A stretch of DNA of 45,509 bases from Veterinaerplatzvirus T145P1, in sequence record OZ035793.1; one strand, written 5' to 3'. Positions within the stretch are counted from its first letter, which is position 1, and every line of letters starts with the position of its first letter. The notes beneath the pieces were generated by a model. That model had not been told where the DNA came from and ran no database searches. It saw only the letters and a list, made by a program, of their open reading frames with translations. Shown piece by piece: positions 554 to 44,190 of the stretch. The position numbers and the translations under genes were made by a program.

Positions 554-2119
554 ATGTCTTTAGTATGGGAAGAAATGACCATTCAGGAAAAGATGGCGGT
601 TAAGGCGATATCAGAACACAGCTTCGAGGGGTTTCTTCGCTGCTGGTTTTCAATAACGCAAGGCGAGCGATATATCCCTAACTGGCATCACAAATATCTA
701 TGCCGAATTATCGACGAGATTATTGCAGGTGAGCGCAAGGACACTATAATTAACATAGCGCCTGGTAGCGGGAAGACAGAGATCGCATCAATCCACTTCC
801 CGGCCTACTCGATGGTTAAGCTGAAGAAGGTGAGGAACCTTAACATCTCATTTGCTGACTCCCTGGTTAAGCGCAACTCTAAGCGCGTACGTGACCTTAT
901 CAAGTCTCAAGAATTTCAATCACTATGGCCTTGCAAGTTTGGCACATGCAAAGACGATGAACTTCAGGTTCTTGATGAGAGTGGCAGGGTTAGATTTGAG
1001 TCAATATCAAAGGCGGCTGGGGGTCAGATTACTGGTGCTCGAGGTGGTTATATAACAGAAACATATAGCGGAGCCGTTCTATTGGATGATTTTGACAAAC
1101 CCGCAGATATGCTTTCTCCGGTTTATCGAGCTAACAACCACGTAATGCTTAAGAACACAATTCGATCACGTCGCGCTAGCTCTGTAAAGGGAAAGGCAAC
1201 ACCAATTATCTCTATACAGCAGCGCCTGCACGTCAATGACTCAACCTGGTTCATGATGGAAGGCGGTATGGGCATCAAATTCGATTTAATTAAGATACCA
1301 GCGCTAGTTACCGATGATTACATCGATTCACTTCCTGACTGGATTAAAGATCAGTTTGCTGAGGACGTACTAAGCAGTGAATATATTGAGCGAGATGGAG
1401 TAAAGTACTACAGCTACTTTCCTAAAAAGGAATCCGTAAACGACCTGGTGGCAATGTGGGATAGTGACCCGTACACTTTCCTTAGCCAATATCAACAATG
1501 CCCAGTGGCTCTTGGCGGTAACCTGATTAACGTGGATTGGTTCCAGCGTCTTAGTGATACATTCAGGCCTCCAGCTAAGTACGATTACAGATTCATCACA
1601 TGCGATACTGCGATGACTACAAAGAGTTATAGTGACTTCTCCGTGCTTCAGTTATGGGGCTATAAGGATGCTAAGATTTACCTGATAGACCAGCGCAGGG
1701 GAAAATGGGAAGCACCAGAGTTGGAGGCTGAACTGCTGGACTTCGAGAAGAAATCAAGGGCAACCAGTCAGTCAGATGGTATCCTCAGAAAGATTATTAT
1801 CGAGAAGAAAGCGTCTGGTATCGGCCTGATTCAATCAGCTGGCAGGGTTATGCGAACACCGATAGAGCCATACGTACCGGATAACGACAAGCTTACTCGC
1901 GTAATGAGCGCATTGCCACAGATTAAGGCTGGTAATGTCGTTCTTCCAGAGTCTGCGCCGTGGCTAAACGGATTGCTTACTGAGGTTGCTGCTTTTACGG
2001 CAGATGATAGCCACAAACACGACGACCAGATTGACTGTCTAACTATGGCAATCAACCTGGTACTTAACATTGCGGACGACCCCAAAGCGCGACTAATGCG
2101 CATAGCGGGAATTAAATAG
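554..2119 (+). CDS. terminase large subunit
   Basis: 521 aa; P-loop-like IAPGSGKTE near N-terminus, acidic C-terminal nuclease-like half; canonical position before portal. Confidence 0.85.
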   Translation: MSLVWEEMTIQEKMAVKAISEHSFEGFLRCWFSITQGERYIPNWHHKYLCRIIDEIIAGERKDTIINIAPGSGKTEIASIHFPAYSMVKLKKVRNLNISFADSLVKRNSKRVRDLIKSQEFQSLWPCKFGTCKDDELQVLDESGRVRFESISKAAGGQITGARGGYITETYSGAVLLDDFDKPADMLSPVYRANNHVMLKNTIRSRRASSVKGKATPIISIQQRLHVNDSTWFMMEGGMGIKFDLIKIPALVTDDYIDSLPDWIKDQFAEDVLSSEYIERDGVKYYSYFPKKESVNDLVAMWDSDPYTFLSQYQQCPVALGGNLINVDWFQRLSDTFRPPAKYDYRFITCDTAMTTKSYSDFSVLQLWGYKDAKIYLIDQRRGKWEAPELEAELLDFEKKSRATSQSDGILRKIIIEKKASGIGLIQSAGRVMRTPIEPYVPDNDKLTRVMSALPQIKAGNVVLPESAPWLNGLLTEVAAFTADDSHKHDDQIDCLTMAINLVLNIADDPKARLMRIAGIK

Positions 2120-2159
2120 CACGAATTGCTAAACGCTAGAGCCACGGATGGCGTATAGT
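2115..2159 (+). promoter_or_regulatory. composite promoter element (palindrome AATAGCACGAATTGCTAAA, 22 bp, TATAGT)
   Basis: Palindrome begins at TerL stop; TTGCTA to TATAGT spacing is 22 bp; drives moron 2191. Confidence 0.55.
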
Positions 2160-9259: not shown

Positions 9260-9265
9260 AGCGCA

Positions 9266-9288
9266 AACCCTCTTCGGAGGGTTTTTTA
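9266..9288 (+). terminator. intrinsic terminator (cUUCGg tetraloop)
   Basis: AACCCTC-ttcg-GAGGGTT plus T6. Confidence 0.75.
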
Positions 9289-9293
9289 TTGCA

Positions 9294-9336
9294 TAGCACT
9301 TTTTGCTAAAGCGGTTATTCAACTTTGCTGTATAGT
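9294..9336 (+). promoter_or_regulatory. composite promoter element
   Basis: ATAGCACTTTTTGCTAAA, 22 bp, TATAGTTA, then CATCGAAACGA leader. Confidence 0.55.
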
Positions 9337-20510: not shown

Positions 20511-20690
20511 TTTGTATTCCTTATTAAGTTGTTTCGTTTTGATGTAGTAATAATACAACCGTCAGTGCGGAATGTCTTTAGCTATTCGTGCTATTGCATA
20601 CACGTAACCGATGTAACTCGATGTATACAATCTCATCCGCGGAAAATGATATACGCACTGTTACGCAAATTTACGCATTGGTTACATTAA

Positions 20691-22879: not shown

Positions 22880-22924
22880 ATAGCATGAATTGCTAAAGAC
22901 AAAACTAAAGGGTGTGGGTATGAT
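22879..22924 (+). promoter_or_regulatory. composite promoter element (variant)
   Basis: AATAGCATGAATTGCTAAAG at Dam stop; 23 bp to TATGAT. Confidence 0.45.
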
Positions 22925-22953
22925 TACCCAATCAACAACGAACGAGGTTAAAG

Positions 22954-27697: not shown

Positions 27698-27752
27698 AAT
27701 TACCTCCATAAACAATAAAGGCACTATACATAATGCAAAGTGCCATTGTTTA

Positions 27753-28232
27753 TCAAATCGTGCTGTTTTGCTCTTTCTTCTTTTGGTTCTCTAATTTTAT
27801 CTTGCGCCATGAACGACACTCTGGCTTAGTGGCTAATTCAGCCTCAGTGACGACTCGCAGCATATGGCGCTTTTTGCACCGAAGTGTCAGCGGTTTCCCG
27901 TTGCCGTCGAATTGCAGGTCTGGTCGGCAGAATGTAGCGCGAAAACCTTCTCCATTTCGCTTATAGTAGTTGTGAGAAAGTTGAGCCCCACGCGCAGAAA
28001 TCATACCGCGCTTAAACCATTCTTCTACAGCCTGTGGTGTTACCTTTAACTGCTTTGCGATATTCGCCTTTGTGCCGAAGAAATCAAGAACTATCTCTAG
28101 CCGCGCGCGTAGCCCGGCTCTTACTTCATCTTTTAAAACATAGTAGCCTGAAGGTCGTTTACGTTGCTTTTTGTCTTCGGTGCGGATGGTTCCGTTATTG
28201 CCGTTAATTGTTCGCTTGTCGACTGTATTCAT
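27753..28232 (-). CDS. helix-turn-helix DNA-binding protein (candidate transcription regulator)
   Basis: Basic 159 aa protein with HTH-like segment KANIAKQLKVTPQAVEEWFKRG; first gene of the - strand operon, next to divergent promoters. Confidence 0.5.
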   Translation of the reverse strand: MNTVDKRTINGNNGTIRTEDKKQRKRPSGYYVLKDEVRAGLRARLEIVLDFFGTKANIAKQLKVTPQAVEEWFKRGMISARGAQLSHNYYKRNGEGFRATFCRPDLQFDGNGKPLTLRCKKRHMLRVVTEAELATKPECRSWRKIKLENQKKKEQNSTI

Positions 28233-28243
28233 TTCATTACCTC

Positions 28244-28288
28244 AATAGCATTTTTTGTTAAAAGTCATCCTGATTTGATGGTATCATT
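28244..28288 (+). promoter_or_regulatory. composite promoter element (helicase operon)
   Basis: AATAGCATTTTTTGTTAAAA then about 22 bp to ATCATT. Confidence 0.45.
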
Positions 28289-30328: not shown

Positions 30329-30744
30329 AGATTACAGATAAAGAAGATTACATTGAGTTTTACCAGGGTCCGGTTAAGTCATGCCCTAAAGAGGATGACG
30401 AACAAATCTTTTGCTCTGATTGGGTTAAGTATAACTACCCAGATATGGTATTTTTCCATTGCGTGAATGAGGGAAAGAAAACCATTGGTCAAGCAAGAAA
30501 AGACCAGGCTAAGGGGCTTCTAAAAGGCGTATCAGACTGTATGTTTCTTATTCCTGAATCACTTCGAGGTAAGTATCCTTTCGGAGCTATAGAGCTAAAG
30601 AGGGCTGGCAAAACTCAAGCAAGTCCAGTCAGCGAAGAACAGAAAGCATTCCTGAAAAGTGTAATGGAATCAGGCGGTTTCTCGGCAGTCGCCTACGGAC
30701 GTGAGGGTTTTCTTGCAGCATTCAAAGAAATGATTTCAAAATAG
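30325..30744 (+). CDS. VRR-NUC domain nuclease (putative)
   Basis: Small basic protein with D...E.K-like segment (DCMFLIP ... IELKR); start overlaps helicase stop. Confidence 0.5.
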   Translation: MKITDKEDYIEFYQGPVKSCPKEDDEQIFCSDWVKYNYPDMVFFHCVNEGKKTIGQARKDQAKGLLKGVSDCMFLIPESLRGKYPFGAIELKRAGKTQASPVSEEQKAFLKSVMESGGFSAVAYGREGFLAAFKEMISK

Positions 30745-30784
30745 CACGAATTGCTAAAGACGATTTTAAAAGATGGGGTATAGT
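30740..30784 (+). promoter_or_regulatory. composite promoter element
   Basis: AATAGCACGAATTGCTAAAG (includes TAG stop), 22 bp, TATAGTTA, CCATCGAAACGA. Confidence 0.55.
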
Positions 30785-30820
30785 TACTCCATCGAAACGA
30801 AACACAAAGAGAGTAATAAA

Positions 30821-31594: not shown

Positions 31595-31785
31595 TTAATG
31601 CAACTTGTGTAAAAGCAAATGGTTTCTTTACTCTACTTGAAGATTACGAAATTATCTTTAATTCAGATGGCGCAATAACAGTATTGAGCGATAATGGATG
31701 CTATTGGTTCGTTAGTTATCAAGGTGACGGGTATTACGGGTGTAGAGATTCGAATGGAAAAGAAGTTAGCTTCTTAGTTGAATAG
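31591..31785 (+). CDS. hypothetical protein
   Basis: ATGA overlap with upstream stop; ends at the TAG that starts a composite promoter element. Confidence 0.5.
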   Translation: MINATCVKANGFFTLLEDYEIIFNSDGAITVLSDNGCYWFVSYQGDGYYGCRDSNGKEVSFLVE

Positions 31786-31825
31786 CACTTTTTGTTAAAA
31801 CTCAAATCCACGTATGGATTATATT
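31781..31825 (+). promoter_or_regulatory. composite promoter element
   Basis: AATAGCACTTTTTGTTAAAA, 22 bp with hairpin ATCCA-cgta-TGGAT, TATATT. Confidence 0.5.
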
Positions 31826-33891: not shown

Positions 33892-33934
33892 TAGCACTTT
33901 TTGCCTAACGCATGCCGTAGAAATGCGGCATAAT
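33890..33934 (+). promoter_or_regulatory. composite promoter element
   Basis: AATAGCACTTTTTGCCTAA, 22 bp with hairpin ATGCCG/CGGCAT, CATAAT, CATCGAAACGA leader. Confidence 0.55.
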
Positions 33935-37376: not shown

Positions 37377-37406
37377 TACTTCTCTCCGTGTTGTTTCTGA
37401 GCGGCC

Positions 37407-37450
37407 ATTATAACAACGACCGCTTATAAAGCATTATCAATTTGTGCTAT
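37407..37450 (-). promoter_or_regulatory. composite promoter element (- strand, ATPase gene)
   Basis: - strand ATAGCACAAATTGATAA, 22 bp, TATAAT with -10 inside hairpin AGCGG...CCGCT. Confidence 0.5.
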
Positions 37451-37566
37451 TAATTGTTCTTAATCCACTTTAGACACATCCACAATCCAGCCCCATAGAA
37501 TGCAATCTTGAGAACTTCAGCTAAGACAAGGATAATAAAGTATCCACCACCAAGTAAATCAATCAT
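37450..37566 (-). CDS. small membrane peptide (38 aa)
   Basis: Not in ORF track; ATGA overlap with upstream stop; hydrophobic core; stop abuts the promoter palindrome. Confidence 0.35.
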   Translation of the reverse strand: MIDLLGGGYFIILVLAEVLKIAFYGAGLWMCLKWIKNN

Positions 37567-37802
37567 TTTTTAATCTCCATTTCCACAATTTCATAACTTA
37601 TGTAATTATTTATCATTCCAATAAGTGATTTTGGGTATGTCTTCATATGCTTCTTGGCGGAATCTTCATCAAGATGTGCTGATATGTTGTGAAAATTGTA
37701 TTCATAATCCATGCCAATTAGTATGTATATCTTATCGTGAGCATTAATGAAGTTATTTGATTTTATTTCCCCAAGCGACCAGCCCTTTCCTTTTCTAATC
37801 AT
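37563..37802 (-). CDS. hypothetical protein
   Basis: ORF-track ORF; overlaps upstream gene. Confidence 0.5.
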   Translation of the reverse strand: MIRKGKGWSLGEIKSNNFINAHDKIYILIGMDYEYNFHNISAHLDEDSAKKHMKTYPKSLIGMINNYISYEIVEMEIKK

Positions 37803-38152
37803 TTGTATTGAGCCTCAAATCTGTAGTCGCCGCAGATTGTAATAAATCCAACCTCATCATCCCTTAAAAGCTGCCAAGCATTACCCTCTTTATCGTAAAT
37901 GCATCCAGCGCGCTGCCCAAGTCCAGCATGGAGATCTACTTGATATCGCTTACCTTCAGTAAAGTATTTTCGAATAGATGAGCGATGATTGACCTTTGTG
38001 CAATAAATTGTCTTTGTCTTAATATACTTTCCGCGCTCTTCCAGGTTAATCCATTTGCCATCTTTCTTGATTTGCTCTACACCATCTTTTACTCGGGCTT
38101 TGTAGAGTACGTTTTCGTTGCTGATCCAGTTTTTAGTAATCGTAGTAGTCAT
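37799..38152 (-). CDS. hypothetical protein
   Basis: Own promoter element 38187-38235 with CATCGAAACGA leader. Confidence 0.55.
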   Translation of the reverse strand: MTTTITKNWISNENVLYKARVKDGVEQIKKDGKWINLEERGKYIKTKTIYCTKVNHRSSIRKYFTEGKRYQVDLHAGLGQRAGCIYDKEGNAWQLLRDDEVGFITICGDYRFEAQYK

Positions 38153-38186
38153 TTTGTTTTCCTTTGTGTCTTTCGTTTCGATGGGA

Positions 38187-38235
38187 TAACTATACAGGAA
38201 AAGCCCCGAATGGCTTTAGCGATTAGTGCTATTTA
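38187..38235 (-). promoter_or_regulatory. composite promoter element (- strand)
   Basis: - strand AAATAGCACTAATCGCTAAAG, 22 bp, TATAGTTA, CCCATCGAAACGA. Confidence 0.55.
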
Positions 38236-38467
38236 TTGCCTTTCGCCCAAGTGGTGTTATCGCTACCTTATACCAAGTTCCAATTTCTGGATTATTTACA
38301 TTATATGCCAGATCTACATAGCCTAGCCGAAATAGTTTTGGTATACACCTGGATGAATTGCCAGAATCTCGAATCCTTCCTCGACTAAAGTCATAACTTA
38401 TTTGATGAATTTCTCCATTTTGAATGCAGTGGAGGGTTTTTATTGCAGTTTCAGAAATTTTAATCAT
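38216..38467 (-). CDS. hypothetical protein
   Basis: ORF-track ORF; stop overlaps promoter palindrome. Confidence 0.5.
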   Translation of the reverse strand: MIKISETAIKTLHCIQNGEIHQISYDFSRGRIRDSGNSSRCIPKLFRLGYVDLAYNVNNPEIGTWYKVAITPLGRKAINSTNR

Positions 38468-38631
38468 TTATGTTCACCATTAATATTCTTTGCTTTTTCT
38501 ATCGCCTTGAGCATAATCTCGTGACTTTCCAGTAAGTCCTCTCGGAACCAATCTCCACAAGGCCAGCCTTTTCCGCTATAGGCACTTATGACCTCGAGAT
38601 CGAAATAATTTATCTCAGATGGTAATAGCAT
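38464..38631 (-). CDS. hypothetical small protein (55 aa)
   Basis: Not in ORF track; RBS gaggtg; overlapping start/stop with neighbours. Confidence 0.4.
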   Translation of the reverse strand: MLLPSEINYFDLEVISAYSGKGWPCGDWFREDLLESHEIMLKAIEKAKNINGEHK

Positions 38632-38873
38632 CACTTCACCTCATCAAAAGTTGCAATCCCAGGAATAAACATCCCAACCTTCCAGCCTGCAATGGCAATC
38701 CATCCAGAATCGTGCTTGTGCGGTCGCTCAGCGCCATTAATCACCCATTCGTTCGGGATTGTCTTGCCGTTAATGATTAGAGGCTCAGCGTCGTATACAG
38801 AGCCTTTAACGAATGGTGTTAAGGCTTTCTTGTCAGTGCTATTGATAACGTTAGTGCAGATTATTTTAGTCAT
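38631..38873 (-). CDS. hypothetical protein
   Basis: ORF-track ORF. Confidence 0.5.
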   Translation of the reverse strand: MTKIICTNVINSTDKKALTPFVKGSVYDAEPLIINGKTIPNEWVINGAERPHKHDSGWIAIAGWKVGMFIPGIATFDEVK

Positions 38874-39057
38874 TTACAACCTCGTACTCACCTTTATAAA
38901 CAGCGACCTCTTTATTCACATTGTTGACAATCACTGCTAAACAAAGAGCACCCAAATATTTTACCACTTCGTACTCGCAGCCAAGCGTCAGACCATAGTC
39001 CTCACATGAACGTCCACTGCAATCTAAATCTTCGAATTTAACTAACTTAATTTTCAT
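38866..39057 (-). CDS. hypothetical protein
   Basis: ORF-track ORF. Confidence 0.45.
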   Translation of the reverse strand: MKIKLVKFEDLDCSGRSCEDYGLTLGCEYEVVKYLGALCLAVIVNNVNKEVAVYKGEYEVVND

Positions 39058-39067
39058 ATCTCAATCC

Positions 39068-39247
39068 TCAAATAAATGGCAAGCATTCGACGCAGCCAAG
39101 CCCATCACAGCACATGAATTCATCTTCTGACTGGAATTGCTTTGCTAAATCAATGTCTAGCCTTCCGCTCACCACAAGGTCGGTGTAATCTTCATTAAGC
39201 CCAATCAGTGCGCACTCGTTACGTAACTCATCTTTATTCTTTTTCAT
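39068..39247 (-). CDS. hypothetical Cys-rich small protein (59 aa)
   Basis: Not in ORF track; ATGA overlap with upstream gene; C-terminal CCDGLGCVEC. Confidence 0.4.
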   Translation of the reverse strand: MKKNKDELRNECALIGLNEDYTDLVVSGRLDIDLAKQFQSEDEFMCCDGLGCVECLPFI

Positions 39248-39411
39248 TTATCCTGGCCTTTTAAATTATAACGCTCTCTCAGAACTTCAACCCATTCTTG
39301 CGCGTCATTCTCTCTCATGAAGAAACTTAAATTTGGGTACTTGTGAAACCCTTTAAGTTCAACTACCCAATGACCACCTTCGTAACTATAACTAACTTTC
39401 TTCTCTGTCAT
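39244..39411 (-). CDS. hypothetical small protein (55 aa)
   Basis: Not in ORF track; first ORF after the long - strand leader. Confidence 0.4.
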   Translation of the reverse strand: MTEKKVSYSYEGGHWVVELKGFHKYPNLSFFMRENDAQEWVEVLRERYNLKGQDK

Positions 39412-39622
39412 TTTGTTACCTTTTGAGTTTTTTTATTATCGACATCTCTTCAACGTACTCGCTACAACTCGGGATTTTACTCCCGGCCCGGCATCCTAAC
39501 AAAAGGACCCGATCGGCGCTTTGGTGGGTGAGGTAACGCTTCCTCACATTGCGCGGTAGTATTTACTCCTTTTGGTCTCTTTCGAGAGTGACTCAGAGTC
39601 TGCTACCGTGTCGATGAGATTA

Positions 39623-39668
39623 AGTATACGCATAGTTAGCCACACTGTCTTTAGCAAAAAGTGCTATT
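39623..39668 (-). promoter_or_regulatory. composite promoter element (- strand, start of long leader)
   Basis: - strand AATAGCACTTTTTGCTAAAG, 23 bp, TATACT, then TCATCGACACGG. Confidence 0.45.
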
Positions 39669-39682
39669 CGTTAGATTTATGT

Positions 39683-39777
39683 ATTGTTGCAGATATTGCA
39701 ATGATTCACTTGATTATTGCACATACAGCAATATTGCTTCCGATGCAATGATGTTTTTGATTGTTGCGAAAAGTGAA
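39683..39777. repeat. nested direct repeats around a central dyad (candidate iteron/operator array)
   Basis: ATTGTTGC at both ends, TGCAATGAT twice inside, central perfect palindrome GCAATATTGC. Confidence 0.6.
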
Positions 39778-39952
39778 ATTAAGTGGTGAGTGAGTGAATG
39801 AAAGATGGATGGACTACCATACAAGTTGATTTTTACCAATCTATGGGAGCCTCACGGATATACGCGTATCCTCCGTATACTCAGTGTCGTCACAAAAGTT
39901 AGTGACCACTAACCTACGTTTTTACGCGATATATACACACGATATACAATAT

Positions 39953-40021
39953 AATATCTATATATATCAACCTTTTACTTTATTATTATTATTATTATTA
40001 TATATATGTATACTGTGTATA
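39953..40021. repeat. AT-rich long direct repeat copy B with (TTA)7 tract
   Basis: Same sequence as 20691-20750 except the microsatellite length and 3 substitutions. Confidence 0.85.
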
Positions 40022-40227
40022 CCGGTAATTGGTGAGATTATTGATATGTTCCGCGCAGATATTCTGACACCTGTCAGAAATGGATGGCATTGTAGGAATA
40101 AAAGGCACATATATAGGGAATGGCTTCAAAAATCTGTACACATCGGATACGGCACATTTACAACCAGCAATGGAGGGGCCTCTGGAGGTAAAAAGCGTAT
40201 CCATGATAAAATAGACGAAAATATACA

Positions 40228-40256
40228 TTGACCGACACGTAAATAGATGGCAATAT
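40228..40256 (+). promoter_or_regulatory. sigma70-like promoter TTGACC-17-CAATAT
   Basis: Canonical spacing; leader CACTGAAACGAAG; upstream of gene 40297. Confidence 0.5.
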
Positions 40257-40296
40257 AGCAGTCACTGAAACGAAGTAAAACAAACGAGGTATCAAC

Positions 40297-40845
40297 ATGC
40301 AGAAAGTAACACTAGGTGAAGTTATCCGTGAGATGGTGCGCAACGCGATGGTGTCCGAGAGTGGTGAGTTTAAAGTTCCGGTTAGCCAGATATTCAAACT
40401 GGTTCGAGGCAAGGAATACCCTGAAATGGTGTATGACGAAGAGACTAGTGAGATCCTCAACCTGGCAGATAGGGCGATGCCGGAACTAAAGAACTCATAC
40501 ATCTATAACACAGTGTCGAGAATGACAGAGCTTCGCGATGCTAATAAGCGAGCGAGATATAAGTTCATCTGGATTGATGATGACGGAGAGCAAACAAGGC
40601 CCGGTAGCTTCGACGGTGATGGCGCTGATAAATACCTGGTCATATACATTGAGAACGGCGCGCACTGGACTGGGAGTCGCGAAAAGAAAAAGCAGGAAGC
40701 GGAGAAAGAGGCGGCTATCATTGAAAAGTTCAAGTCTAGACTGCTCAAGCTGTCACCAAGTGTTGCTGGCTTGGAAGGTGAAGAACTTAAGGGCGCTGTT
40801 ACAATGATTAATGCTTATCAGGAAATGATTAAGGAGACTAAGTAG
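40297..40845 (+). CDS. hypothetical protein
   Basis: 182 aa; RBS gagg; upstream sigma70-like promoter TTGACC-17-CAATAT at 40228-40256. Confidence 0.55.
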   Translation: MQKVTLGEVIREMVRNAMVSESGEFKVPVSQIFKLVRGKEYPEMVYDEETSEILNLADRAMPELKNSYIYNTVSRMTELRDANKRARYKFIWIDDDGEQTRPGSFDGDGADKYLVIYIENGAHWTGSREKKKQEAEKEAAIIEKFKSRLLKLSPSVAGLEGEELKGAVTMINAYQEMIKETK

Positions 40846-40934
40846 TAGACTACCATACCACTTGTGGTACAGCGAGGAAGAGGTTGAGGTGGCCATTGAG
40901 TTCTATAGGAAAGCTAAATCACTACTGAATGGTA

Positions 40935-40979
40935 AATAGCACTTTTTGCCTAACGCGGTAATGCCATGGATGGCATAAT
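40935..40979 (+). promoter_or_regulatory. composite promoter element
   Basis: AATAGCACTTTTTGCCTAA, 22 bp with hairpin ATGCCA-tgga-TGGCAT, CATAAT, CATCGAAACGA. Confidence 0.55.
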
Positions 40980-41017
40980 AGCCTCATCGAAACGAGATAC
41001 GTAAATGAGGATTTAAA

Positions 41018-41236
41018 ATGAGCAAGGCAATCACACTGCAATGCCTTAAGACAAATAACCCAGAGTTCTTAAAAGGTCACAAATATGTGGCAACCCTGGT
41101 GGATGGGAAAACATGGGCGGTTAAGGGTGGATTCCAGGATTACAAATTCCCACTTGAGCACATACCTGGCGGAAACCTTGGTTTTGTTAGTGACTGCCGC
41201 TCAGTTAAGTTTGTTTTTGAGGTTGTAATGAAATAG
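41018..41236 (+). CDS. hypothetical protein
   Basis: Promoter element 40935-40979 plus CATCGAAACGA leader. Confidence 0.55.
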   Translation: MSKAITLQCLKTNNPEFLKGHKYVATLVDGKTWAVKGGFQDYKFPLEHIPGGNLGFVSDCRSVKFVFEVVMK

Positions 41237-41282
41237 CAATAATTGCTAAATCTTCCGCAAGGCCATTTGATATAGTGGCCTT
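41231..41282 (+). promoter_or_regulatory. composite promoter element with -10 inside hairpin
   Basis: AAATAGCAATAATTGCTAAA, 22 bp, TATAGT; inverted repeat AAGGCCA...TGGCCTT (41259-41282) encloses the -10. Confidence 0.5.
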
Positions 41283-41317
41283 GTTGAAGCAAAACAACCA
41301 ATCACGAGGTATAAATT

Positions 41318-41545
41318 ATGGTTATCAATAGTGTTCGAATCTCTGACGACTACAACGAGCAGGCTGAGGTTCTTGTTTACAAAGTCTTCAATGTCGATCG
41401 GGATACAATGAAGGTTAAGCTCGACCTCAATCCTGATGACGAATCATATCCGTCAACATACATGCTGTACACGCCAGACCAGGCTCGCCAGTTAGCAGCG
41501 TATCTGATGGAAGCGGCCCACCGAGCTGATAAGGGGGTTTTATGA
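41318..41545 (+). CDS. hypothetical protein, paralog family member A
   Basis: Shares RI.D...QAEV ... NPDD ... Y.PD.AR.LAA with ORF 41790..41999. Confidence 0.55.
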   Translation: MVINSVRISDDYNEQAEVLVYKVFNVDRDTMKVKLDLNPDDESYPSTYMLYTPDQARQLAAYLMEAAHRADKGVL

Positions 41546-41757
41546 TTACCGATCGCAAGCTATTTAAAGACATGGAAGGCGACGACTGCTGGATTGACAC
41601 GATGACAAATTTCGGAGAGGTCACTGTTGAGATTGTAATTGACGATGACTCTGGAACCTTTCCCGTGCAAGATGCGGATACCGTACGCGCAATGGGTGAG
41701 CACTTAATCAAGATGGCTGACTACATGGAGAGCCAGGGGAAATTAGCTGTAAATTAA
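41542..41757 (+). CDS. hypothetical acidic protein
   Basis: ATGA coupling to upstream gene. Confidence 0.5.
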   Translation: MITDRKLFKDMEGDDCWIDTMTNFGEVTVEIVIDDDSGTFPVQDADTVRAMGEHLIKMADYMESQGKLAVN

Positions 41758-41789
41758 TCAAGATTCGCATTATCAATAACAACGAGGAA

Positions 41790-41999
41790 ATGAAGATGGA
41801 AAATATTCGTATTGAAGATGTTCACTTTGACCAAGCTGAGGTCGGAATCACAAAAAGCGTTCAAGGATACGTTGTTTATCTAGACTTCAATCCGGATGAC
41901 TACGGGGACGGCCAGATGCTGATGCACTACAGTCCTGATAAGGCGCGCAAATTGGCGGCAGCATTAATCCTGGCGGCGGAGGAGGTGGAGAAGCAATGA
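41790..41999 (+). CDS. hypothetical protein, paralog family member B
   Basis: Paralog of 41318..41545 by visible sequence similarity. Confidence 0.55.
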   Translation: MKMENIRIEDVHFDQAEVGITKSVQGYVVYLDFNPDDYGDGQMLMHYSPDKARKLAAALILAAEEVEKQ

Positions 42000-42256
42000 A
42001 ACGTTTAATGAAATGCATGACTATTATTGCGGCAATGATTGCTCTTACTGGTTGCGAGAAGGCACCTGAGGTTCAGATTCAGTCAGGTGAATTCAATGTG
42101 GAGCGCCTATTCACAGTGGATGGATGTACCGCCTACCGATTCCGAGATAGCGATAGAGCCATCTACTACACAAATTGCAATGGCAGTACGCAGAGTGAGT
42201 ACAGGCACGGCAGGGCCATGAGACAAGAAACAGTTCAGACAGATCGCACTAATTGA
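41996..42256 (+). CDS. lipoprotein (second candidate exclusion/envelope protein)
   Basis: Signal peptide with lipobox LTGC, four Cys in mature part. Confidence 0.55.
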   Translation: MKRLMKCMTIIAAMIALTGCEKAPEVQIQSGEFNVERLFTVDGCTAYRFRDSDRAIYYTNCNGSTQSEYRHGRAMRQETVQTDRTN

Positions 42257-42290
42257 TAAAAGGGGATCCATCCTGACTGGTATAATCCCC
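42244..42290 (+). promoter_or_regulatory. degenerate composite element with extended -10 in hairpin loop
   Basis: CGCACTAATTGATAAA, 22 bp, TGgTATAAT; stem GGGGAT...ATCCCC flanks the -10. Confidence 0.45.
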
Positions 42291-42439
42291 AGCATCAACC
42301 ACATGAATGGAAGTTAAGTGACGATATACGAACATAAATTCAGTAGCAGGGGTATTGATATGCTCCTGCGCTATGTAGACGAAAAATACGCAAATCTCAT
42401 GCTTAAGACGCATGGCGGCACAATAACGAGGATTGAGAT

Positions 42440-42769
42440 ATGAGTAAATACGATCGCAAGATTATTGGCATTGATGGCACAGTAACAACAGTAGATGTTT
42501 ATCGTGTTCTTGATGCGTTTGGCGTATCTGACCCAGCCACTCAGCATGCGGTAAAGAAGATGCTTTGCACTGGCCTGCGTGGACACAAGGATTACTTAAC
42601 TGACCTTAATGACTCCATTGAGTCACTACAGAAGGCTAAAGAGATTTACTGGCAGAAGATGATTCATGAATCCGATAAAATCACTGATTCAATTTTAAAT
42701 CCACCAAAAGAAGCGAGATTTAGTACTGCTAATGGTTCAGAATTCACTTTCGGAAAGGTTAGAGTCTAA
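42440..42769 (+). CDS. hypothetical protein
   Basis: RBS gagg; preceded by ~145-nt leader from a hairpin-embedded TGnTATAAT promoter. Confidence 0.5.
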   Translation: MSKYDRKIIGIDGTVTTVDVYRVLDAFGVSDPATQHAVKKMLCTGLRGHKDYLTDLNDSIESLQKAKEIYWQKMIHESDKITDSILNPPKEARFSTANGSEFTFGKVRV

Positions 42770-42813
42770 ATAGCACGAATTGCTAAACCCGCTCCTGCGG
42801 GTTTTGTTATAGT
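42768..42813 (+). promoter_or_regulatory. composite promoter element with terminator-like hairpin in spacer
   Basis: AAATAGCACGAATTGCTAAA, spacer contains CCCGC-tcct-GCGGG-TTTT, then TATAGTTA. Confidence 0.55.
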
Positions 42814-42841
42814 TAGTTCACACCAATCGAGAGGTAAGAAA

Positions 42842-42934
42842 ATGAAGCAATACACATCAAGCAATCACCATAACGGTCACATCATGCAGTTCTATCGCCA
42901 CAATCTGAAGACTAAGGGAGTGTTTGGAAAATGA
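42842..42934 (+). CDS. hypothetical small protein (30 aa)
   Basis: Not in ORF track; RBS gagagg; ATGA overlap with next gene. Confidence 0.3.
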
Positions 42935-43149
42935 TTACAATTAACCTGTCAGAAAAGCAAGCAGCAGAACTCAAGTGCATGCTGTCAATCTTTGAGAAGA
43001 CAAATGACCGAGCAATTGCAAAAGAGGTCACGACTCAAATCAACAACCAGCAGTTCGACGTCAGTGACTTCGAGTCGTCACGGCAGTACGAAGCATTAAG
43101 CGTCAACGCTGCATACCTGGCTAACTGGGATAAGGCAACGAAGAAATGA
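42931..43149 (+). CDS. hypothetical protein
   Basis: ORF-track ORF. Confidence 0.5.
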
Positions 43150-43283
43150 TTTACATCCACACGTACTACACTGGTAAGTCTAATAGCGTCAAACATGTCC
43201 GTGTTCACGATAACTACGAGAGCGCAAAAGCTCAATGGTTGGTTCTTGGTGGTGACATTAATTCATACAGAGTTGCTGAGTAG
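43146..43283 (+). CDS. hypothetical small protein (45 aa)
   Basis: Not in ORF track; ATGA overlap; its TAG stop begins a promoter palindrome. Confidence 0.35.
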   Translation: MIYIHTYYTGKSNSVKHVRVHDNYESAKAQWLVLGGDINSYRVAE

Positions 43284-43329
43284 CACTAATTGCTAAAACA
43301 GTATTGGGGTAATTTGTTATAGTTACCCC
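43281..43329 (+). promoter_or_regulatory. composite promoter element
   Basis: TAGCACTAATTGCTAAAA, 22 bp, TATAGTTA; stem GGGGTAA...TTACCCC spans the -10; CATCGAAACGA leader. Confidence 0.55.
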
Positions 43330-43353
43330 ATCGAAACGAGAGAGGAATAAGAA

Positions 43354-44020: not shown

Positions 44021-44150
44021 ATATGTTATCGCATGTGAACGACTGGTCTTTGATATGAAGACTTTTCACTGGTTCATAATTAAGGATTTAGTTAAGCCTT
44101 ATAAGAAAGGTGTTATGCCAGAGCAGTTTGTTAAGTCGTTCTACAAATAG
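44007..44150 (+). CDS. hypothetical small protein (47 aa)
   Basis: Not in ORF track; ends at the TAG that starts a promoter palindrome. Confidence 0.3.
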   Translation: MSFTEYVIACERLVFDMKTFHWFIIKDLVKPYKKGVMPEQFVKSFYK

Positions 44151-44190
44151 CACGAATTGATAAACCAGATCGCCACGGATGGCATATAAT
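44145..44190 (+). promoter_or_regulatory. composite promoter element
   Basis: AAATAGCACGAATTGATAAA, 22 bp with hairpin GCCA-cgga-TGGC, TATAAT. Confidence 0.55.

Follow-up and report, generated by a model that had tools for sequence, protein, structure and literature searches.

The short inverted repeats that accompany the promoters of Veterinaerplatzvirus T145P1 are real and, taken together, exceed chance. They are probably RNA stem-loops of sense-strand read-through transcripts, where they would form the 3'-end structure of the upstream cistron while being overprinted on the promoter of the next. We infer that transcripts do read through from the upstream gene, and that the stem-loops would act in termination, stabilisation or processing.

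The window, by which we mean the whole 45,509-nucleotide stretch analysed (OZ035793.1), comes from a T1-like siphophage (Drexlerviridae) and holds 18 genome-wide copies of a promoter module: TAGCACnnnTTGnTAAA, about 20 variable nucleotides, TATAGT and then ccCATCGAAACGA. The predicted start of transcription is a conserved A lying 7 nt downstream of the -10. The original prediction had set repeats within 37400-43329 around a 22-bp spacer. Repeats do lie there, but they are not confined to that interval, since modules span 2117 to 44190; TTGCTA and the -10 are 22 nt apart in 15 of the 18 window copies, and among 415 unique copies from relatives 82% keep this distance. The conserved palindrome of the module, unlike the variable stems, is TAGCA-N5-TGCTA in the upstream motif. 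This motif usually contains, or lies next to, the stop codon of the gene upstream. In class II activator-dependent promoters, CRP or FNR sites are centred at -41.5. The module resembles these in its dyad centre (about -42, counted from the predicted start), in having no usable -35 at 17 bp and in the TG extended -10 of many copies; this likeness concerns the module rather than the hairpins, and activator binding is putative.

The motif is the 21-nt direct repeat aaATAGCACnnnTTGnTAAAA of phage TLS, seen too in T1, Rtp and Rogue1 (PMC11447400, 2024); the 18 copies in the window share its orientation to transcription and its position about 75 nt before start codons. The function of the repeat was left open there, as a stoperator, enhancer site or UP element (PMC11447400). 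In the parts of that account available, a fixed 22-nt distance to the -10, the conserved CATCGAAACGA start region and spacer hairpins go unmentioned (PMC11447400).

Of the 18 window copies, 9 have a perfect stem of 6 bp or longer, against 0.7-1.0 expected; no such count arose in 1000 spacer shuffles or random genome samples. The mean DNA dG in the window is -4.4 vs -1.65 (sd 0.29), and 10/18 copies individually reach p<=0.05 when compared with shuffled spacers. Among 410 unique copies from relatives, the sense RNA has a dG of -9.2, compared with -4.6 when the spacer is shuffled and -6.4 when spacers are swapped between promoters.

The hairpins take two layouts. In class a both arms lie in the spacer, the loop is usually 4 nt and the stem ends at about -12. 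In class b the spacer supplies one arm only (about -25 to -18), and the discriminator together with the start site forms the second (about -7 to +4); these arms flank the fixed -10 hexamer, which therefore falls in the loop. The modules at the six repeats first noted are as follows.

37400-37449, minus strand: module; motif 37449-37433, -10 TATAAT 37412-37407
40937-40982, plus strand: module; motif variant TAGCACTTTTTGCCTAA 40937-40953, -10 CATAAT 40974-40979
41234-41289, plus strand: module; motif 41234-41250, -10 TATAGT 41271-41276
42244-42290, plus strand: module; motif 42244-42260, -10 TATAAT 42281-42286
42771-42813, plus strand: module with a canonical intrinsic terminator in its spacer; -10 TATAGT 42808-42813
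43281-43330, plus strand: module; motif 43281-43297, -10 43318-43323

All six repeats are present in the sequence and several are longer than had been written. The AAGGCCA/TGGCCTT repeat at 41259-41282 extends to CAAGGCCA/TGGCCTTG, outside which CTTC/GAAG forms a further helix; the resulting class b hairpin (41252-41289) holds the -10 in its loop, with an RNA dG of -21.9 and a z of about -6 (-6.3), and covariation is seen among its related copies. GGGGTAA/TTACCCC had been placed at 43304-43329 with two extra T counted; it starts at 43306, extends to TGGGGTAA/TTACCCCA and belongs to a class b hairpin (43305-43330, z -3.6 to -3.8) whose 3' arm is the discriminator up to +1. On the minus strand, the class b RNA hairpin AGCGGUC/GGCCGCU at 37424-37400 has at least 7 bp with one U.G (z -3.0 to -3.6); its DNA repeat is AGCGG/CCGCT, for which JeanPiccard has the compensatory AGAGG/CCTCT. 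GGGGAT/ATCCCC (42262-42290, class b, 17-nt loop) is weak by itself (z -1.6 to -2.4), is present in T1 at its 2831 copy and is partly lost in JeanPiccard. The class a hairpin ATGCCA-tgga-TGGCAT (40961-40976) abuts and overlaps the -10 and is individually not significant (z -0.8 to -1.5). Finally, CCCGC-tcct-GCGGG-TTTT (42788-42806) extends to AAACCCGC-tcct-GCGGGTTT (42785-42804) with the tail TGTTATAGTT. With 8 pairs and a z of -2.7 to -4.1, 42785-42812 is terminator-like in our scan, and it is the only one of the six repeats, and of the hairpins in the window, to pass; its relatives keep the pairing with changed stems (ACCGC/GCGGT, CCCTC/GAGGG).

The remaining modules of the window are listed below.

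2117-2159, plus strand: module after the large terminase gene; short hairpin GCCA-cgga-TGGC, individually not significant
9262-9336, plus strand: module with a canonical terminator, AAACCCTC-ttcg-GAGGGTTTTTT, upstream of its motif (9294-9310)
20550-20593, minus strand: module without an upstream same-strand gene; z 0.0
22881-22933, plus strand: module; hairpin 22911-22933, UGGGUA-ugau-UACCCA, overlaps the -10 TATGAT; z -2.0
27709-27765, minus strand: module at the 3' end of a Cro-like regulator gene; hairpin 27752-27709
28246-28287, plus strand: module without an upstream same-strand gene; z +0.4
30742-30793, plus strand: module; hairpin 30772-30793 of 9 bp, one of them G.U (GAUGGGGUA-uagu-UACUCCAUC), covers the -10 to +3
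31783-31825, plus strand: module; class a AAUCCA-cgua-UGGAUU (31805-31820) abuts the -10; z -2.2
33892-33934, plus strand: module; class a hairpin 33912-33931, AUGCCG/CGGCAU, ends in the -10 CATAAT; z -3.9
38189-38231, minus strand: module; terminator-like AAAGCC-auucg-GGCUUU followed by U's (38217-38200)
39623-39666, minus strand: first leftward module, in the divergent region, without an upstream same-strand gene; z -0.7
44148-44190, plus strand: module; short hairpin GCCA-cgga-TGGC (44172-44183), individually not significant

The hairpin at 27752-27709 has the core GGCACU/AGUGCC with the -10 in its loop (dG -16.5, z -5.2), and that at 30772-30793 has a dG of -13.0 (z -3.4). In relatives of the latter, the 5' arm that pairs with this 3' region is placed differently, and compensatory versions occur (GAGGTGG/CACCTC, GAGTTGG/CAACTC, GAAGTGG/CACTTC). 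At the 33892 position T1 has ACCCGC-gaaa-GCGGG and L007 the compensatory AGCCGC-gaaa-GCGGC, while in relatives of 31783 the loop alone changes and the stem is kept. The TAG of the 2117 motif is the stop codon of the large terminase gene, and the stem at 38217-38200 uses the TAAA of its motif.

How strong a hairpin is depends on the position of the upstream stop, and the hairpin would belong to the upstream gene. The dG is -11.9 where the upstream stop lies in or adjoins the motif (n=544) and -6.95 where it lies at least 20 nt upstream (n=58), against a shuffled null of about -5; modules without an upstream ORF have -7.4 (n=61), a comparison confounded with promoter class, since promoters that open an operon may be regulated unlike internal ones. 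At the level of families, the values are -11.7 with an adjacent stop and -6.7 otherwise (p=2e-4). Where the spacer hairpin is missing, 9% of cases have a canonical terminator just ahead of the motif, vs 4% otherwise (p=0.017). Within the window, the three promoters without an upstream same-strand gene (39623-39666, 28246-28287 and 20550-20593) have no hairpin above chance when their spacers are folded against shuffles (z -0.7 to +0.4), and the 9294 module has no spacer hairpin (z +0.3) and the upstream terminator instead.

Genes of T1-like phages are packed very tightly, and the variable sequence before the next start codon would be limited to the promoter's spacer of about 20 nt and its 6-nt discriminator. 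A stem-loop would be written into the spacer and discriminator because only those positions are free. Hairpin 3' ends are bimodal: they cluster near -12 and again between -1 and +4, and only 6/226 lie inside the hexamer, as overprinting around a fixed -10 predicts. Register and position vary widely, loop size runs from 3 to 17 nt, and about a third of the modules in relatives (103/329) have no hairpin. The stem-loops would then punctuate polycistronic RNA immediately ahead of the point where transcription restarts from the next promoter.

Compact junctions at which a terminator precedes or overlaps a promoter are known in phage and bacterial operons, and the hairpins might all be intrinsic (Rho-independent) terminators, the module being a full stop and restart with the A/U-rich -10 (UAUAGUUA) as an imperfect U-tract. 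The spacer hairpins 42785-42812 and 38217-38200 are indeed a hairpin and T-tract inside the next promoter, and JeanPiccard has a terminator-like counterpart of the second (AAAGCCC-ttag-GGGCTTTT). Class a stems end at the -10 and run into UAUAGUUA; the 8 nt after them hold 3.6 T on average, and at least five T occur in the 8-nt tail of 27/105 of these in-spacer hairpins in relatives. T1 has also been viewed as terminator-flanked units containing promoters (PMC11447400). However, class b stems, about half of the hairpins, run into AUCGAAACGA with a mean of 1.6 T (9/121 with at least five), a single window hairpin passes the terminator scan, and annotated terminators in the T1 record overlap 2/24 motif hits, some of which are not real promoters. 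Where this phage has canonical terminators (9262-9290, 34179 and 45471), it uses long U-tracts. Compared with the compact junctions above, the hairpins sit inside the promoter, between upstream motif and -10, rather than before it. Most hairpins lack a U-tract, and therefore termination cannot be their general role; as an account of all of them it is unlikely. The coupled terminator-promoter units of the original prediction hold for a minority, which would be true intrinsic terminators, such as 42785-42812.

For the U-tract-less hairpins, the most likely roles are those of 3'-to-5' exonuclease barriers, processing boundaries, leaky terminators or pause sites; a stabiliser role is proposed by analogy. 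Tuerk et al. reportedly described stable RNA hairpins of the C(UUCG)G type between phage T4 cistrons in 1988, and Newbury et al. are said to have described REP-type 3' stabiliser hairpins in E. coli operons in 1987. Like these, the present hairpins are short, rich in G+C and placed between cistrons; many lack a U-tract, UNCG/GNRA loops are enriched on the sense strand, and it is structure rather than sequence that is maintained. Unlike them, they are overprinted on a promoter, with arms made of spacer and discriminator and the -10 often in the loop, and a stabilising role here is putative.

Pairing is maintained by compensatory change, as had been proposed from stems that differ between copies. 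Across all alignable groups of relatives (663 unique modules), 50 double changes keep a pair and 21 break one, compared with 6-17 kept and 22-32 broken in slid-partner controls. In the 41234 group both sides have changed in 7/12 pairs, and 90.6% of cells are paired vs 25-49% with the partner slid, a level reached in 0/500 shuffles; RNAalifold recovers the same core helix. The 43281 group (30 sequences) is 79.7% paired vs 32-51% when slid, mostly through conservation plus one-sided G.U changes rather than covariation. Column-wise covariation across flank-defined families is modest (0.44 vs 0.33-0.36), since hairpins undergo turnover and change register. Part of the pairing signal may come from modules spread by duplication. 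Similar spacers are common to many modules, one alignable group holds 78 unique copies, a 30-sequence sample of which shows covariation not above shuffles, and GCCAYGGATGGC is common to 2117, 44148 and 40937. It is nonetheless quite improbable that the palindromes are functionless products of promoter-cassette duplication or of template-switch (quasipalindrome) mutation in unconstrained spacers: the compensatory excess holds overall and in other groups, variation is lower in paired than in unpaired spacer columns (0.197 vs 0.284), the upstream stop governs hairpin strength, and the G.U and tetraloop biases described next follow the strand.

The hairpin signals are RNA-specific and follow the sense strand, that is, the direction of transcription. 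Among the 410 copies from relatives, the sense strand folds better than the antisense in 282 and worse in 120 (Wilcoxon 1e-19; p-values are rough because copies from related phages are non-independent), and the shuffled null leans the opposite way. Internal mismatches are G.T rather than A.C by 43:15 (one copy per family, p=3e-4; shuffled 15:18), with 17:6 in leftward and 19:7 in rightward genes. A strand-symmetric set of 64 perfect stems (5 bp or longer, loop of 4 nt) shows 13 UNCG and 10 GNRA loops when read in the sense direction, and 2 UNCG and 0 GNRA in the antisense (about 3.6 expected). UUCG-type loops have special stability in RNA alone.

These biases bear on the hairpin-dependent promoters of the original prediction, whose interpretation is partly supported overall but not supported in this part. 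Spacer and discriminator would extrude from supercoiled DNA as a stem-loop or cruciform with the -10 single-stranded, for which N4 early promoters and single-strand promoters such as Frpo are models. Class b copies do put the -10 in a loop, 22 nt from TTGCTA to the -10 is overlong for a normal sigma70 -35/-10 pair, so that some unusual recognition is needed, selection acts on pairing, and G.T is also the least harmful mismatch in non-template-strand DNA hairpins. N4 early promoters likewise have a short stem with promoter elements at the hairpin, the resemblance that had been drawn, but theirs is a DNA hairpin with a fixed 3-nt loop recognised by the virion RNA polymerase, whereas here loop size and register vary and template-strand mismatches are tolerated. 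A cruciform requires pairing on both strands, yet A.C on the partner strand is tolerated 3:1. Together with the sense-strand enrichment of UUCG-type loops, the variable position of the hairpins and the promoters that work hairpin-free where no gene ends upstream, this makes the DNA hairpin very improbable. The family would carry no phage RNA polymerase, going by the published statement for the relative TLS, and neither such a polymerase nor a sigma factor is reported for the phage group (PMC11447400).

It is extremely improbable that the stems are variable protein-binding palindromes: although their place in an over-long spacer is like that of MerR-type operators and the window encodes a Cro-like regulator, stems wholly different between copies (GGGGTAA, AAGGCCA, AGCGG, GGCACT, ATGCCA) could not all be read by a single protein, G.U wobble is tolerated, and the palindrome that is conserved lies outside them. 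The regulator gene is a candidate source of a protein that would bind TAGCA-N5-TGCTA.

27753-28232, minus strand: Cro/C2-like helix-turn-helix regulator gene; Pfam P22_Cro at 26.9 bits, below the 30.2 cut-off

T1 and JeanPiccard, matched by position, carry genes annotated as transcriptional regulators at the corresponding place on their maps.

The window is an essentially complete genome of a T1-like siphophage, because it is identical in sequence to such phages to a high degree and resembles them in gene content. Its last 5.9 kb matched 289 phage records in all; over this stretch three Veterinaerplatzvirus T145P1 genomes are 99.4–99.7% identical, and many T1-like coliphages are 86–91% identical to part of it. 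Gene content is like that of T1 and JeanPiccard (both Drexlerviridae), with the order much alike in JeanPiccard. JeanPiccard ORFs at positions matching the three largest in the window (1141, 993 and 870 aa) are annotated as tail tip, tape measure and lateral tail fibre. One tRNA-Arg is present. T1-like phages are very common among the phages of E. coli and Klebsiella, and serve both in phage therapy and as models. The control of their transcription is little characterized.

The original prediction placed a set of hairpin-associated −10 boxes between 37400 and 43329. Inverted repeats are indeed found there, but this range is too narrow for the promoter units that contain them, of which 18 well-formed copies are distributed over both strands from 2117 to 44190. 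Searching the window with TAGCACGAATTGCTAAA, with up to three mismatches allowed, gave 18 matches against 0.67 expected. The unit, which we call the module, is of the T1/TLS type: many copies of the motif aaATAGCACnnnTTGnTAAAA, each oriented with transcription and located about 75 nt 5′ of a start codon. Aligned copies share the following layout, 5′ to 3′:

upstream motif: aaa-TAGCACnnnTTGnTAAA
spacer: about 20 variable nt
−10 region: TATAGT(TA)
start region: cc-CATCGAAACGA
gene start: ribosome-binding site and ATG

Of the 18 window copies, 15 have a gap of 22 nt between TTGNTA of the motif and the −10, as do 82% of 415 unique copies found in relatives. This length exceeds what a sigma70 −35/−10 pair allows, and the module has no usable −35 at 17 bp. 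Within the motif lies the dyad TAGCA-N5-TGCTA, whose center would be at about −42 with a transcription start at the A that is conserved 7 nt past the −10 (A in 84% of copies). Class II activator sites are dyads centered near −41.5 that substitute for the −35, and the dyad of the module would lie near this position, given the presumed start. One candidate reader of the dyad is a Cro-like HTH protein encoded at 27753–28232. The start region c-CATCGAAACGA, 7–17 nt past each −10 (e.g. 43330–43340 and 30793–30803), is conserved among copies and phages and could be an initial-transcribed or 5′-leader element.

The 21-nt upstream repeat has already been described in phage TLS, in a paper that also notes it for T1, Rtp and Rogue1, and the window motif is as published for it (PMC11447400). 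In its accessible part, this 2024 paper leaves the function of the repeat open, as a stoperator, enhancer site or UP element, and makes no mention of hairpins (PMC11447400). Beyond this re-annotation, a search of the accessible literature returned no promoter or start-site mapping for T1-like phages. The full module, with its fixed 22-nt gap, dyad at about −42 and conserved start region, was not found described in the accessible literature; the present analysis supplies it, from dyad motif and gap to −10 and start region. No copies occur in 894 kb of unrelated phage loci, namely the 72 non-T1-like loci (L050–L121) of a large-terminase-anchored set of 80, of which 8 are T1-like. The module is specific to the T1-like group. 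In about half of the copies (140/302 and 308/602 in two counts) the upstream gene has its stop codon in the motif, at the TAG.

All six inverted repeats of the original prediction are present at the positions given for them, and several are longer than first stated. Three of these hairpins are:

41252–41289: hairpin with an 8-bp core and a 4-bp outer helix
43305–43330: hairpin TGGGGTAA/TTACCCCA
42785–42804: hairpin AAACCCGC/GCGGGTTT, followed by a T-rich tail

When folded as RNA and compared with dinucleotide shuffles, four of the six reached z scores of −2.7 to −6.3; the other two (42262–42290 and 40961–40976) are individually unremarkable, with z of about −1.5 each. Taken over the region from the motif to +10, perfect stems of at least 6 bp occur in 9 of the 18 window copies against 0.7–1.0 expected from spacer shuffles or random genome segments, none of 1000 of which reached the observed count. 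The mean DNA dG of the window copies is −4.4 vs −1.65 (sd 0.29), and 10 of 18 are individually significant at p≤0.05. Among 410 unique copies from 41 related loci, T1 and JeanPiccard, mean sense-RNA dG is −9.2, compared with −4.6 when the spacer is shuffled and −6.4 when spacers are swapped between promoters. Pairing is therefore partly within the spacer and partly between the spacer and its own −10 and discriminator. T1 itself has the same stems (GGGGTA/TACCCC, GGGGTT/AACCCC, GGGGAT/ATCCCC, AAGGCCA/TGGCCTT, AGGGGAA/TTCCCCT and AAGGGCA/TGCCCTT). Rfam at the gathering threshold matched only the tRNA-Arg, so the hairpins belong to no RNA family known to it.

The 3′ ends of these structures are bimodal, with peaks at about −12 and at −1 to +4 and almost none inside the −10 hexamer. 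In the first class (class a) the whole stem lies in the spacer, typically with a 4-nt loop. The second (class b) has its 5′ arm at about −25 to −18 and its 3′ arm in the discriminator and start site, so that the −10 falls in the loop. Of 329 strict modules, 105 are class a, 115 class b, 6 have structures ending inside the hexamer and 103 are stemless. Loops range from 3 to 17 nt. The first four nucleotides of the start region (ATCG) often pair with a spacer CGAT in class b hairpins. A semi-conserved GGAT(G)G is found at about −20 to −15 in most modules (−20 to −13; e.g. 2146–2153 and 44177–44184), with column frequencies of 47% for A−18, 65% for T−17 and 76% for G−14. It provides NGGA loops for many in-spacer hairpins and may also serve as an extended −10 or TRTG-like promoter contact.

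The proposal that stem sequences differ between copies while pairing is kept was borne out. In 74 groups defined by alignable 44-mers, which replaced families defined by flanks, 50 distinct double substitutions preserve a pair and 21 break it; the corresponding counts in six slid controls, with the partner position shifted, were 6–17 and 22–32. In 16 related copies of the module at 41234 both sides have changed in 7 of 12 pairs, with variants such as AAGGCCA/TGGCCTT, AAGCCCA/TGGGCTT, AAGGGCA/TGCCCTT and AACGTCA/TGGCGTT. In this group 90.6% of cells are paired vs 25–49% with the partner slid, none of 500 shuffles reached the observed value on four of five measures, and RNAalifold independently recovers the core helix. 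Further compensatory change is seen between AGCGG/CCGCT of the 37449 module and AGAGG/CCTCT in JeanPiccard, and the 30742 family contains GAGGTGG/CACCTC, GAGTTGG/CAACTC and GAAGTGG/CACTTC. Compensatory substitution of the kind that marks an intercistronic RNA stem-loop is thus present, and weak in the 43281 group, where covariation did not exceed shuffles and pairing is conserved with one-sided G·U changes; this group was left out of the covariation evidence. Column-wise covariation in the flank-defined families shows a modest excess (0.44 vs 0.33–0.36), diluted because hairpins often turn over or shift register among related copies.

The transcribed sense strand is singled out by three independent signals. 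First, folding is better on the sense strand than on its complement in 282 copies and poorer in 120 (Wilcoxon 1e-19), while shuffled spacers lean slightly the opposite way. Second, a strand-symmetric stem finder applied to one copy per family counted 43 internal G·T (G·U in sense RNA) vs 15 A·C mismatches (p=3e-4; 15:18 when shuffled). The bias is the same whether genes run leftward (17:6) or rightward (19:7), and so goes with transcription and not with one particular DNA strand; a replication-strand origin was rejected on these grounds. Third, 64 perfect stems have 5 bp or more and a 4-nt loop; in the sense direction 13 of these loops read UNCG and 10 GNRA, compared with 2 and 0 in antisense and about 3.6 expected from base composition. 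UUCG loops have special stability in RNA, which they are not known to have in DNA. These signals argue against a DNA-level role, because a cruciform needs pairing on both strands. Shortening of the 22-nt gap by a cruciform was separately rejected by arithmetic, as the 12–16 nt extruded would leave 6–10 nt.

Hairpin strength depends on the upstream gene and not on the promoter. The dG is −11.9 where a same-strand ORF stops within or beside the motif (n=544), −6.95 where it stops at least 20 nt before the motif (n=58) and −7.4 where there is no upstream ORF (n=61), with a shuffled null of about −5; at the family level the difference by upstream stop is −11.7 vs −6.7 (p=2e-4). The stem-loops that form in sense RNA thus lie downstream of a same-strand stop. 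Window modules without an upstream same-strand gene fold at z of −0.7 (39666, − strand), +0.4 (28246, + strand) and 0.0 (20593, − strand). Modules that lack the spacer hairpin have canonical terminators just 5′ of the motif twice as often; the module at 9294, for example, has a UUCG-looped terminator in this position and no spacer hairpin. A reading of TGCTAAA as an extended −10, with the hairpin as a 5′ cap, was rejected because the hexamer would lack T at −7 and because promoters without an upstream gene lack hairpins.

The explanation that best fits these results is that the inverted repeats are 3′-end structures in the RNA of the preceding gene, overprinted on the free positions of the promoter. 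The stem-loops would form in read-through transcripts, where the upstream cistron ends at its 3′ side. With the stop codon inside the motif of the next promoter and the next start codon only about 75 nt on, the hairpin would be overprinted on the spacer and discriminator because there are no other free positions, and the fixed −10 would be either avoided or left in the loop.

Intrinsic terminators, whose transcripts end 7–9 nt past the stem, would account for a minority of the stem-loops, and the proposed coupling of terminator and promoter would hold to that extent. Within the window 42785–42812 is by its sequence a real terminator with a U-tract after the stem, and 38217–38200 is roughly so. 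As an account of all the hairpins, termination fits only a minority, since most lack a U-tract: among relatives, a T-rich tail (at least 5 T in 8 nt) follows 27 of the 105 hairpins in class a and 9 of the 121 in class b. The remaining hairpins have no U-tract and are followed by AUCGAAACGA. By analogy with the T4 intercistronic UUCG hairpins and REP-type stabilizers, they are most likely 3′-exonuclease barriers, processing boundaries, leaky terminators or pause sites.

Inheritance through cassette duplication, with no function for the pairing, explains some of the likeness between copies, but it fails on the compensatory excess, the strand biases and the dependence on the upstream stop. The hairpin-dependent promoters first proposed, taken as DNA hairpins of the N4 type, are not supported. 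In such promoters the hairpin is read by a phage-encoded (virion) RNA polymerase and has a uniform 5–7 bp stem, a 3-nt loop and a fixed distance to the start site, unlike the window modules, whose geometry is variable, with loops of many sizes in two position classes. Further points against this reading are the 103 of 329 strict modules without a stem, which show that some promoters of the class lack the hairpin, the absence of hairpins where no gene ends upstream, the near-shuffled folding of modules without an adjacent upstream stop, and a pairing bias that follows the strand. For the relative TLS the re-annotation reports neither an RNA polymerase nor a sigma gene (PMC11447400). Variable protein operators are ruled out, as the stem sequences are unrelated among copies.

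A bolder version of the 3′-end reading, which we consider unlikely, is that hairpin and promoter form one functional punctuation unit through promoter-assisted termination. The occupied promoter would stop or pause the upstream polymerase at the U-tract-less hairpins embedded in it, and what blocks it could be an activator or polymerase bound there, or sigma70 that engages the non-template strand of the −10 anew. If so, T1-like phages would have one gene, one transcript control, and placement of the −10 in the loop with a 3′ arm reaching exactly to +1 to +4 would be functional and not an accident of packing.

The published upstream repeat, intercistronic hairpins and terminator-promoter junctions are already known; in the accessible literature no description was found of RNA hairpins under selection that are systematically overprinted on the module's spacer and discriminator. 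Overprinted 3′-end structures would mean that about 45 nt carry two overlapping codes, one for the promoter and one for RNA structure, with direct predictions for transcript 3′ ends and starts. Such stems should not be taken for promoter hairpins, and editing or moving these promoters in phage engineering would also alter the end of the upstream message.

Several minor observations concern other loci. Four contigs of 144–180 kb (L134, L136, L139 and L154) each carry a single complete T1-type module before small genes of 83–90 aa, and the L136 module contains a GGGGTAG/TTACCCC hairpin. The position of these single modules before small genes in very large phage contigs suggests that small gene cassettes travel between phage groups with their own promoter.

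Within the window, a G+C-rich leader roughly 200 nt long (39414–39617, − strand) lies between the first leftward promoter (39666, − strand) and the first gene; it has no obvious ORF and no Rfam match, and it folds somewhat better than shuffles (dG −59, z −2.6). The first rightward gene has its ATG at 40297, and just ahead of it the non-coding stretch at 40225–40262 has by eye a −35-like TTGACC with CAATAT/TATAGC 17–19 nt on and no TAGCAC motif; a consensus promoter scan called no + strand site there. This classical −35 without TAGCAC is a hint that promoters with the motif form a class of their own, which may depend on a factor. Between the divergent early operons, in a non-coding region of about 880 nt, three copies of the 20-nt ATTGTTGCAGATATTGCAAT (39683–39779) are spaced 30 and 47 nt apart; each contains the palindrome TTGCA-N5-TGCAA, and they could be operators or origin repeats. 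The same region has an AT-rich, low-complexity stretch at 39930–40015, with (TAT/ATT)n and TATATA runs, that may be a DNA-unwinding element.
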